Source: an uncultured virus (IMG/VR IMGVR_UViG_3300037400_001971)
Lineage: Duplodnaviria > Heunggongvirae > Uroviricota > Caudoviricetes
Direction: 5' to 3' (one strand)
DNA length: 64,000 bases
Virus record (IMG/VR): IMGVR_UViG_3300037400_001971
In this document: one piece after another, positions 53,074 through 53,805 of the stretch
How positions within the stretch are numbered: the stretch's first letter is position 1
Layout of the letters: each line of letters starts with the position of its first letter
The notes under the pieces: model-generated
The model's database searches: none
Told to the model about the DNA's origin: nothing
What the model saw: the letters and a program-made list of their open reading frames with translations, nothing else
Program-made: the position numbers and the translations under genes

Positions 53074-53769
53074 ATGACACAGAATCAAGAATTAAAGATG
53101 ACGCTGCTTGATAAGTTCGGCGTTATTGATGATCCAAAGACCGTGAGCTTCTGTCGTGAGGCTTACAAGTTCCTGACCGAAGATGAAAGCAAGGAGGCTC
53201 CGCAGGCTCCAGTCAGTTTCTTGCAGAAGTATTGCAAGAATGAAAGGGACGGAATCTATCTCGTTTATGAGGATGGCGCATACACCAAATACGCTCTGAA
53301 TCTCGTAAATAAGGGAGTGAAATATATCGGTATCATTCACTACGGCCATCCGTTCTGTGTCGCCCTGAAAGATGCCGGCAGATTCTCCCTCATCAAGAAG
53401 GGTGTGGAATGCGAAGAGGAAAGCGAGTTCTACGTTGAAAGCGAAACCGAAGCCCTCCACGATTGGGAATGTGTCGAGCGCACAAAGAGGATTCAGGAAC
53501 TTGGAACCGATATTCCCCTGAATGAGGGTGAATATATTCCAGCCCTGCCGATGGTTGTTGCCATGCGGTACTGGAAGAATCGCGGACTTGATGAAGCCCT
53601 GATTGCAGTTGGCGGCGAGCCTCTTCAAAATGACAGCTTCTACTGGAGCGTGACTGAGGACGGCAGCGGCTACGCGTGGAACGTGAATTTTGGCTCAGGT
53701 TACGTCTACAGCACCTACAGCAAGTGTAACGGCGTCGTTGTTAGGCCAGTGGCAGCATTTAACCTTTAA
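53074..53769 (+). CDS. C-type-lectin-fold (DUF1566-like) protein; probable DGR target
   Basis: YIPAL..., C-terminal YWSVTE....AW.VNF..G........K.....VRPVAAF; NNC-rich codons; perfect hairpin at 53782-53805. Confidence 0.75.
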   Translation: MTQNQELKMTLLDKFGVIDDPKTVSFCREAYKFLTEDESKEAPQAPVSFLQKYCKNERDGIYLVYEDGAYTKYALNLVNKGVKYIGIIHYGHPFCVALKDAGRFSLIKKGVECEEESEFYVESETEALHDWECVERTKRIQELGTDIPLNEGEYIPALPMVVAMRYWKNRGLDEALIAVGGEPLQNDSFYWSVTEDGSGYAWNVNFGSGYVYSTYSKCNGVVVRPVAAFNL

Positions 53770-53781
53770 CCTCTCACCTAA

Positions 53782-53805
53782 GGCTGGGTGTTCCAACACC
53801 CAGCC
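53782..53805. repeat. Perfect inverted repeat (DGR-type hairpin/cruciform)
   Basis: GGCTGGGTGT-TCCA-ACACCCAGCC with no U-tract. Confidence 0.7.

Follow-up and report, generated by a model that had tools for sequence, protein, structure and literature searches.

How a small gene in the replication and early region of a phage genome comes to end in a hypervariable lectin-like segment, with no retroelement beside it, is the question raised by a 64,000-nt stretch of DNA (hereafter the window) from an uncultured virus of the Caudoviricetes (IMG/VR record IMGVR_UViG_3300037400_001971). The open reading frame (ORF) at 53074-53769 on the plus strand encodes a leaderless protein of 231 aa, and an initial annotation, made from the letters alone, proposed that its 3′ end is a target of a diversity-generating retroelement (DGR), in which a reverse transcriptase (RT) copies a template repeat (TR) into a variable repeat (VR) with randomisation at template adenines. 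The analysis described here indicates that this ORF is very probably a genuine second, non-adjacent target of the phage's own DGR, because of the VR itself, the hairpin that follows it, a linked A-rich template copy, the adenine-specific pattern of substitution in relatives, and hypervariability among closely related strains. That the phage of the window encodes an RT and an accessory gene, and that the element is active at present, we infer.

Variable repeat and template copy

The VR occupies 53632-53760 (+), a stretch of 129 nt or 43 codons within the C-terminal C-type-lectin domain, as first described, and its end (53740-53760) reads GTTAGGCCAGTGGCAGCATTT. Its borders are exact, as a second copy in sequencing run X1 begins matching at 53632 and stops at 53760, and the hypervariable columns of related proteins are confined to the same interval. 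Codons of the form NNC, on which suspicion initially fell, account for 22 of the 43 within the VR and 54 of the 186 elsewhere in the gene (Fisher p=0.007), an enrichment that is real, modest, and not decisive by itself. The VR is followed by a VR-specific 3′ flank (53761-53781, +), in which the gene's final two sense codons and its stop codon (53767-53769) lie together with TAACCT-like repeats; homology to the template ends before it. Next comes a GC-rich hairpin (53782-53805, +; GGCTGGGTGTTCCAACACCCAGCC), folding as DNA into a perfect 10-bp stem with a 4-nt loop, TCCA, so that the initial annotation of a VR ending and a perfect inverted repeat stands. Its statement that neither template repeat nor RT lies within the window also holds: a repeat search returned no second VR copy, blastn of 53600-53810 gave the self-match and the hairpin palindrome only, no RVT match came from the 104 distinct ORFs of at least 120 aa, and tblastn of the window with the RTs of two relatives yielded nothing at E<=1.

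A second copy is present in sequencing data, where assembled Logan contigs of four runs were aligned to 52000-55000, with X1 the probable source of the window. A 109-nt contig from X1 (depth 65.5) matches 53632-53710 with 10 other letters, between flanks unlike those of the gene (AAAATCGCAGAAA before 53632 and ACAACAACAAGTATAAC after 53710). A 13,443-nt contig from the same run (depth 53.2) reproduces 52104-55000 in reverse complement at its far end, without a single differing letter; it opens with A-rich TAACGTCAACAACA, after which comes a copy of 53717-53760 that has 4 other letters. The loose ends of the second copy, ACAACAACAAGTATAAC and TAACGTCAACAACA, are AAC-rich; the tallied changes comprise six G>A and four T>A and no other kind, with one position known (53726, G>A), and X1 depth doubles across 53616-53716. 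The second copy is A-rich where the gene has G or T, and the 13.4-kb contig joins it physically to the gene; a copy differing at adenines was what the initial annotation had suggested seeking. In the other runs, short extra copies over 53632-53701 in X2 and X3 may represent either the TR or the VR of a primary target, no contig extends over about 53628-53735 in X15, and contigs end or start at 53672-53701 in X3. Assembly breaks at the VR would fit variation within the sample, the uncovered part itself being no evidence.

Provided that the 13,443-nt contig runs collinear with the window, the template's 3′ part extrapolates to 65,489-65,546 (-), placing the whole TR at about 65.49-65.61 kb (-), approximately 1.5 kb past the window's end; there it would be inverted relative to the VR and separated from it by 11.7 kb. 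The expectation of a cassette elsewhere in the genome, plausibly in a tail region beyond 64000, is thus upheld for the template, which is linked and lies by the lysis/tail end, and extends to the RT by synteny with a relative, described below. The description of the target as 'remote' is correct insofar as the gene is distant from its template, but that term is reserved for separations of >100 kb in the survey of Wu et al. (2018, PMC5758913), in whose terms a target 11.7 kb from its template is 'non-adjacent'.

Relatives, strain variation and cassette position

A profile search of IMG/VR identified 15 loci, and a separate search of rumen metagenome-assembled genomes (MAGs) gave eight; the RT of relative G001, used as a query, matched four of the five MAGs searched. 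Four relatives carry TR, RT and the small homologue on one record, and in these the substitutions of the distant VR fall at TR adenines in 15/15 (G001), 10/10 (G002), 18/19 (G006) and 12/12 (G007) cases, 55/56 in total, with corresponding values for the VR local to the RT of 19/20, 15/15, 12/12 and 14/15 (60/62). The adenine-specific variation anticipated among homologues is found in these relatives, and the differences among homologues are almost wholly limited to scattered sites in the last ~43 residues. The 57.4-kb record G001, featuring terminal repeats, encodes a homologue of 60% identity that wraps the contig ends; its TR reads DSNYWSVTENNSNNAWNVNFGNGNVNNNNKYNGNSVRPVAAF, with flanks matching the loose ends in X1, and its RT (phrog_1423, E=6e-52) is 47% identical to that of G002 and 36% to that of the Bacteroides phage Bacuni_F1. 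The homologue in G002 (51.5 kb; 40% identity) ends at contig position 9877, with the cassette ~40 kb further on along the linear record, consisting of a local target with its VR, an ORF in the position of the accessory gene Avd, and an RT (PF00078, 31 bits) whose frame contains the TR in its 5′ end. The small target lies 13 kb from the RT on the opposite strand in G006 and 37 kb away on the same strand in G007, the primary target beside the RT being a frame of 2000 aa or more in both (2233 aa in G006, where it contains the local VR). In a further record, G003, both extra copies sit at the contig start, which indicates a cassette cut by the contig end.

The sequences downstream of the repeats separate recipients from templates in the same way as in the window. 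A spacer similar to 53761-53781 is found after the VRs of G001, G006 and G007 and not after their TRs, and a GC-rich hairpin follows every VR examined and no TR, consistent with the inverted repeat listed 3′ of the VR by Wu et al. (2018, PMC5758913). The hairpin of the distant VR in G006 is identical to that of the window; those following the G007 VR and both G001 VRs share the loop-proximal GTGT/ACAC and the loop TCCA (TCTT once) with altered outer stems, and those of the two G002 VRs present a common 7-nt loop on unrelated stems. Repeat length also varies: the window VR is 3 nt longer than its template, with five codons (TAC AGC ACC TAC AGC, 53707-53721) in place of four AAC codons, and both G001 VRs exceed their TR within the AAC run, by 3 nt for the local (L059 98-229) and 6 nt for the distant VR (L060 about 1500-1636). 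Such codon-length differences are not new, since differences in length between TR and VR, mostly beside AAC repeats and attributed by proposal to RT slippage, are described for 7% of DGRs (Wu et al. 2018, PMC5758913).

Variation among near-identical genomes is confined to the VR. The window protein has 96 homologous clusters at 90% identity, with homologues in rumen Prevotella, Prevotellaceae and Bacteroidaceae MAGs, and an alignment of 12 proteins was drawn from its own cluster (10 members) and two neighbouring ones. Across the N-terminal 188 columns, 18 vary and none takes four or more states, as opposed to 23 of the remaining 47 columns, 14 of which take four or more, around an invariant scaffold (WSVTE..AW.V.FGSG.V...K...VVRPVAAFNL). 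The variable columns coincide with the asparagine (Asn) codons of the G001 template, and the lengths of cluster mates differ by one to three codons at two AAC runs. The same pattern is present in 14 aligned members of a more distant cluster with 174 distinct variants. An identical protein is recorded on an 84,329-bp contig, and megablast of 52000-56000 against GenBank phages returned no match. Exact searches with 48 nt from the VR end in IMG/VR and with the 50 nt of 63520-63569 in JGI metagenome contigs were likewise negative.

The position of the RT follows from synteny with G006, a prophage in a Prevotella MAG that is collinear with window 52114-62670, with identities of 63% for the target, 89% for the next ORF, 95% for the SNF2-methylase, 85% for a radical-SAM ORF and 82% for the lysin. 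In G006, the RT is directly followed by homologues of the last two ORFs of the window, 63563-64000 (-; 65%) and 63096-63584 (-; 77%). The match with 63563-64000 starts 1,489 nt from the TR 3′ end, a distance that, added to 64000, gives 65,489, the same figure as extrapolated from the X1 contig and an independent estimate of it. Because of this synteny, the RT of the window phage would be expected at about 64.2-65.8 kb (-), with the window ending about 0.2 kb before it. The truncated ORF at the edge of the cassette (63563-64000, -), a tblastn match of 65% identity to L077:3334-3774, 181 nt after the end of the RT match in G006, was considered as a candidate RT and rejected, being itself no RT; a search of IMG/VR gave no relatives for it. 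The best lysin-anchored locus, L018 (91% lysin identity), was also dropped, being not collinear and holding no VR-like copy.

On this arrangement, the TR at about 65.49-65.61 kb (-) would be transcribed and its transcript copied by the RT with random nucleotides inserted opposite template adenines, whereupon the complementary DNA would replace 53632-53760. The gene would be marked as recipient by the hairpin at 53782-53805 and by the 3′ flank that is specific to the VR. About 15-17 Asn-templated positions would in this way be rewritten on the ligand-binding face of the C-type-lectin/DUF1566 domain, with a codon occasionally gained or lost in AAC runs.

The target protein and competing readings

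The AlphaFold model of the target protein (65 homologues as input; predicted local distance difference test score, pLDDT, 87) features an N-terminal two-helix module (residues 1-36; helices 3-15 and 21-36), a disordered linker (residues 39-54), and a mixed alpha/beta domain of the C-type-lectin/DUF1566 type from about residue 55 to the end of the ORF at residue 231, all within 53074-53769 (+). The best Foldseek match in the PDB is a DUF1566-type fimbrial protein of Bacteroides ovatus (4EPS, E=2e-5), followed by the C-terminal domain of Legionella Lcl (8Q4E, E=6e-3), with C-type lectins, including those of snake venoms, in lower rows. Among the predicted viral structures of BFVD, the protein most resembles the tip, at the C-terminus, of a tail fibre of 1417 aa (TMq 0.63; root-mean-square deviation 2.6 over 192 columns), and next a 228-aa DUF1566 protein of a crAss-like phage. 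The VR is thereby placed, in the predicted model, at the C-terminal end of a C-type-lectin fold, in accord with the class first assigned to it. The translation, read directly, contains no N-terminal hydrophobic signal-like segment, and the earlier statement that a signal peptide is absent accordingly stands.

Residues 1-45 (53074-53208, +; core motif FCREAYKFL) are the best conserved part of the protein, and loci L009-L015 match these residues alone (near 10001-10147), at 51-69% identity. A region search with this segment returned 10 proteins, and the full ORFs of L009-L015 reveal its fusion to a different lectin type, Fib_succ_major (Pfam matches on P0095 and P0096). A protein-atlas search with residues 1-150 yielded unnamed viral clusters alone, all scoring under 0.9, which were set aside. 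This alternative partner domain is itself hypervariable between the near-identical loci L011 and L012. One docking-like module would accordingly serve two kinds of probable DGR target, and such modularity suggests that a constant part for docking is combined with a variable binder that can be exchanged.

The target gene is co-oriented with genes encoding an SMC/AAA-like ATPase (48323-50305, +), a weakly matched RecT-like ORF (50327-51148, +), a metallo-β-lactamase (MBL)-fold nuclease (51145-51882, +), YopX (54287-54760, +) and an SNF2-helicase/N6-N4-methylase fusion (55205-57742, +), and in G002 the homologue lies beside a DnaQ-like exonuclease. A non-structural, cytoplasmic role is favoured by the position of the gene, which in at least four lineages lies with early or replication genes. 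The protein may be an early-expressed, leaderless cytoplasmic binder, whose N-terminal module docks a constant partner and whose variable lectin face tracks a variable molecule of the host or of a rival phage, a view to which we give slightly less than even credence; the intracellular anti-defence binder that the initial annotation thought possible is neither backed nor contradicted by the analysis, and a comparable role in conflict was earlier proposed for an analogous target of Quimbyvirus (PMC8008677). No conserved partner gene was found, the upstream neighbour (52752-53060) being unrelated to the gene upstream of the Bacuni homologue. A wider formulation, in which the family as a whole pairs the N-terminal docking module with a DGR lectin of DUF1566 or Fib_succ_major type to form antibody-like binders refreshed by the retroelement, which would work within infected or lysogenic cells as counter-defence factors or as sensors in inter-phage exclusion and keep up with variable immunity proteins of the host, is advanced tentatively, as possible rather than probable; if true, no functional class of phage DGR targets inside the cell would have been recognised before these modular binders.

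The strongest competing account accepts the DGR target but takes the protein to be an adhesin, either a virion-associated accessory receptor-binding protein attached via the N-terminal helices or a released, soluble lectin. It would be in keeping with the fold, which is common to large tail-fibre tips in BFVD and to the fimbrial protein 4EPS, with the use of one template for both the small target and the large primary target beside the RT in G006 and G007, and with the annotation of the Bacuni homologue as a putative fimbrial tip protein in adhesion (PMC8143477). However, the gene resides in a block of DNA-metabolism genes, not of tail genes, in the window, G002, G006 and Bacuni_F1, the protein has no export signal, and the difference in host range among the Bacuni phages tracked the RT-proximal VR and not the distant one (PMC8143477). 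An adhesin is on balance doubtful, though by no means far-fetched.

Several observations weigh against the assignment of the gene as a second target of a working DGR in the phage of the window, or against the role proposed for it. Neither an RT nor an accessory gene nor a primary target was seen for this phage; of the 10 changes tallied in X1, one has a known position, and the tally derives from assembled contigs, not raw reads. The RT match of G006 (C17:23490-25142, L077) carries one in-frame TAG, in addition to which that of G008 (C98:39838-41244; L080, L082) is interrupted by a TGA; gene breakage, recoding and mistakes in assembly are all possible causes, and a frameshifted RT is also described in Quimbyvirus (Benler et al. 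2021, PMC8008677). Record G004 (97% complete, 77 kb) encodes two DUF1566 paralogues, one in the early region (L008 10004-10738) and one beside tail-fibre-like genes (L068 1526-2257, -), 77% identical in the VR-like stretch, and neither TR nor RT was found in it; this lineage may have lost its DGR, which implies that ongoing diversification is not obligatory for the protein family. The Avd-position ORFs of G001 (171 aa) and G002 (167 aa) match no Pfam or PHROG family and have no BLASTP similarity to the Bacuni Avd. The C-terminus of the window protein (residues 186-226) matches Lcl_C/DUF1566 (PF07603) weakly, at E=7e-4 and 20.3 bits, which does not reach the gathering cut-off of 34.9 bits; the protein is a divergent relative of the family and not a scoring member, with which the fold agrees, and the homologue in L008 scores 35.8 bits, while several database homologues carry the precomputed domain. 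As to function, a fold that is the same as that of tail-fibre tips and the fimbrial tip protein fits an adhesin equally.

Some of these points would also suit a relic, that is, a VR diversified in the past by an element now inactive, with the variation among strains inherited. The unseen RT of the window phage, the in-frame TAG in the G006 RT and the TGA that splits that of G008, the retention of two paralogues without TR or RT in G004, and the extra codon of the window VR relative to its template are all compatible with such a history. Opposed to it are the different VRs carried on almost identical backbones by the ten members of one 90% cluster and by two neighbouring clusters, the near absence of non-adenine differences between TR and distant VR in the relatives (1/56), which gives no sign of decay, and the intact, AAC-rich template copy in the source run; codon-sized indels at AAC repeats are moreover a known outcome of DGR activity (PMC5758913). 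A relic is accordingly considered improbable. Least credible of all, and very improbable, is a history free of any retroelement, in which positive selection or recombination shaped an ordinary, fast-evolving lectin tip and the NNC bias arose by chance; this reading could draw on the modest enrichment (p=0.007) and the absence of TR and RT from the window but is contradicted by the linked A-rich second copy with its G>A and T>A changes only, and by the 55/56 substitutions at template adenines in relatives whose RT lies beside the template.

Genomic setting and known systems

The wider gene content of the window is that of a temperate siphophage of Bacteroidota type. It includes a tape-measure gene (2-4858, -), a portal, a large terminase, an S24 repressor-like gene, an integrase with Arm-DNA-bind_5 and SAM_5 domains (44337-45560), and a GH108 lysin (62110-62670, -), with the portal closest to those of Porphyromonas, Riemerella, Bacteroides and Parabacteroides phages (29-35% identity) and the runs that hold the stretch deriving from bovine, sheep and goat gut or rumen metagenomes. 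Other features of the window were recorded in passing. The large-terminase ORF (35253-36848, -) has matches of Hint/intein type at residues 368-500, after the nuclease domain, and may contain an intein or Hint insertion. A cluster encoding GTP cyclohydrolase I, a QueE-like radical-SAM ORF and QueC (37660-40910, -) looks like a 7-deazaguanine pathway such as phages use to modify their DNA. Three tRNA genes (5860-5933, 43526-43599 and 43725-43812, all -) comprise two for tRNA-Met (CAT) and one for tRNA-Ser (GCT), two of them beside the integrase, and an accessory block within the structural region (18805-29259, +) encodes an ADP-ribosylglycohydrolase, a C5-methylase, a KilA-N/ANT antirepressor, a stand-alone MutS domain I protein and RadC. 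The G006 homologue of the SNF2-methylase (95% identical) is interrupted by about 1 kb (L070 14320-15299) absent from window 55205-57742.

The closest known counterpart of the target is found in Bacuni_F1 (MT635598.1), one of the Bacuni phages, for which two DUF1566 targets, one of them distant from the RT, were reported (Hedzet et al. 2021, PMC8143477). The distant target, Bacuni_F1_00026, is similar to the window protein by tblastn (28% identity over 97% of the length, E=5e-12) and comparable in size (224 as against 231 aa), with a C-terminal DUF1566 domain and an annotation as putative fimbrial tip protein, and both proteins match the structure of BACOVA_04982. Its gene stands between DNA polymerase A and a C5-methylase, just as the window target stands among replication genes, and the cassette (target, Avd, TR and RT) is about 11 kb away, adjoining a lysis gene (amidase). 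Since it resembles Bacuni_F1_00026 along its full length and is encoded in a like genomic context, the window protein is a member of the family of the Bacuni distant target. Sequence identity is nevertheless low, and the two systems differ in host (human-gut B. uniformis as opposed to rumen Prevotella-like bacteria), in genome size (a 40-kb phage as opposed to an 84-kb contig carrying the window protein), and in the orientation of target and cassette, which are on the same strand in Bacuni_F1 and inverted in the window; both Bacuni targets are read as adhesins (Hedzet et al. 2021, PMC8143477).

A parallel arrangement is described in Quimbyvirus, where, as proposed for the window phage, one DGR serves two C-type-lectin targets, one of them by the tail genes (Benler et al. 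2021, PMC8008677). The second target is distal, on the opposite strand, and situated among methyltransferases and a nuclease, read as non-structural, with a role in phage-host conflict suggested, and the RT is split over three frames (PMC8008677). No sequence relationship to the window protein is shown, as none of the six phage records matched by tblastn was Quimbyvirus and the proteins were not compared directly. One adjacent plus one non-adjacent target within 50 kb is, according to the survey of Wu et al. (2018, PMC5758913), often the configuration of phage-associated DGRs. The same survey features the DUF1566/Fib_succ_major class of VR and a GC-rich inverted repeat after the VR, as in the window, although the parts of it consulted contain neither this protein family, nor the N-terminal module, nor a position in the replication block. 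The prototype DGR of Bordetella phage BPP-1 (mtd/avd/TR/brt) likewise rewrites the 3′ end of a C-type-lectin gene by adenine-specific mutagenic retrohoming, and there too a flank and a hairpin stand on the target side (PMC5758913), but its single, adjacent target is the tail-fibre tip, in contrast to the small, leaderless protein of the window, encoded 11.7 kb from its template. The arrangement has thus already been described in gut Bacteroidales phages, and no new mechanism is established here; among the listings and abstracts consulted for the period after the Bacuni and Quimbyvirus papers, nothing settles the function of such second targets.

Work on phage DGRs has so far centred on tropism switching by tail fibres. 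The recurrence of a second target within the DNA-metabolism block of gut and rumen Bacteroidales phages shows that hypermutation is also spent beyond the known receptor-binding tip. To this the present case adds a rumen lineage in which VR and TR form a clean, linked pair, a docking-like N-terminal module common to two lectin subtypes, and, in the Bacuni phages, a culturable homologue in which the function of such targets could be tested.

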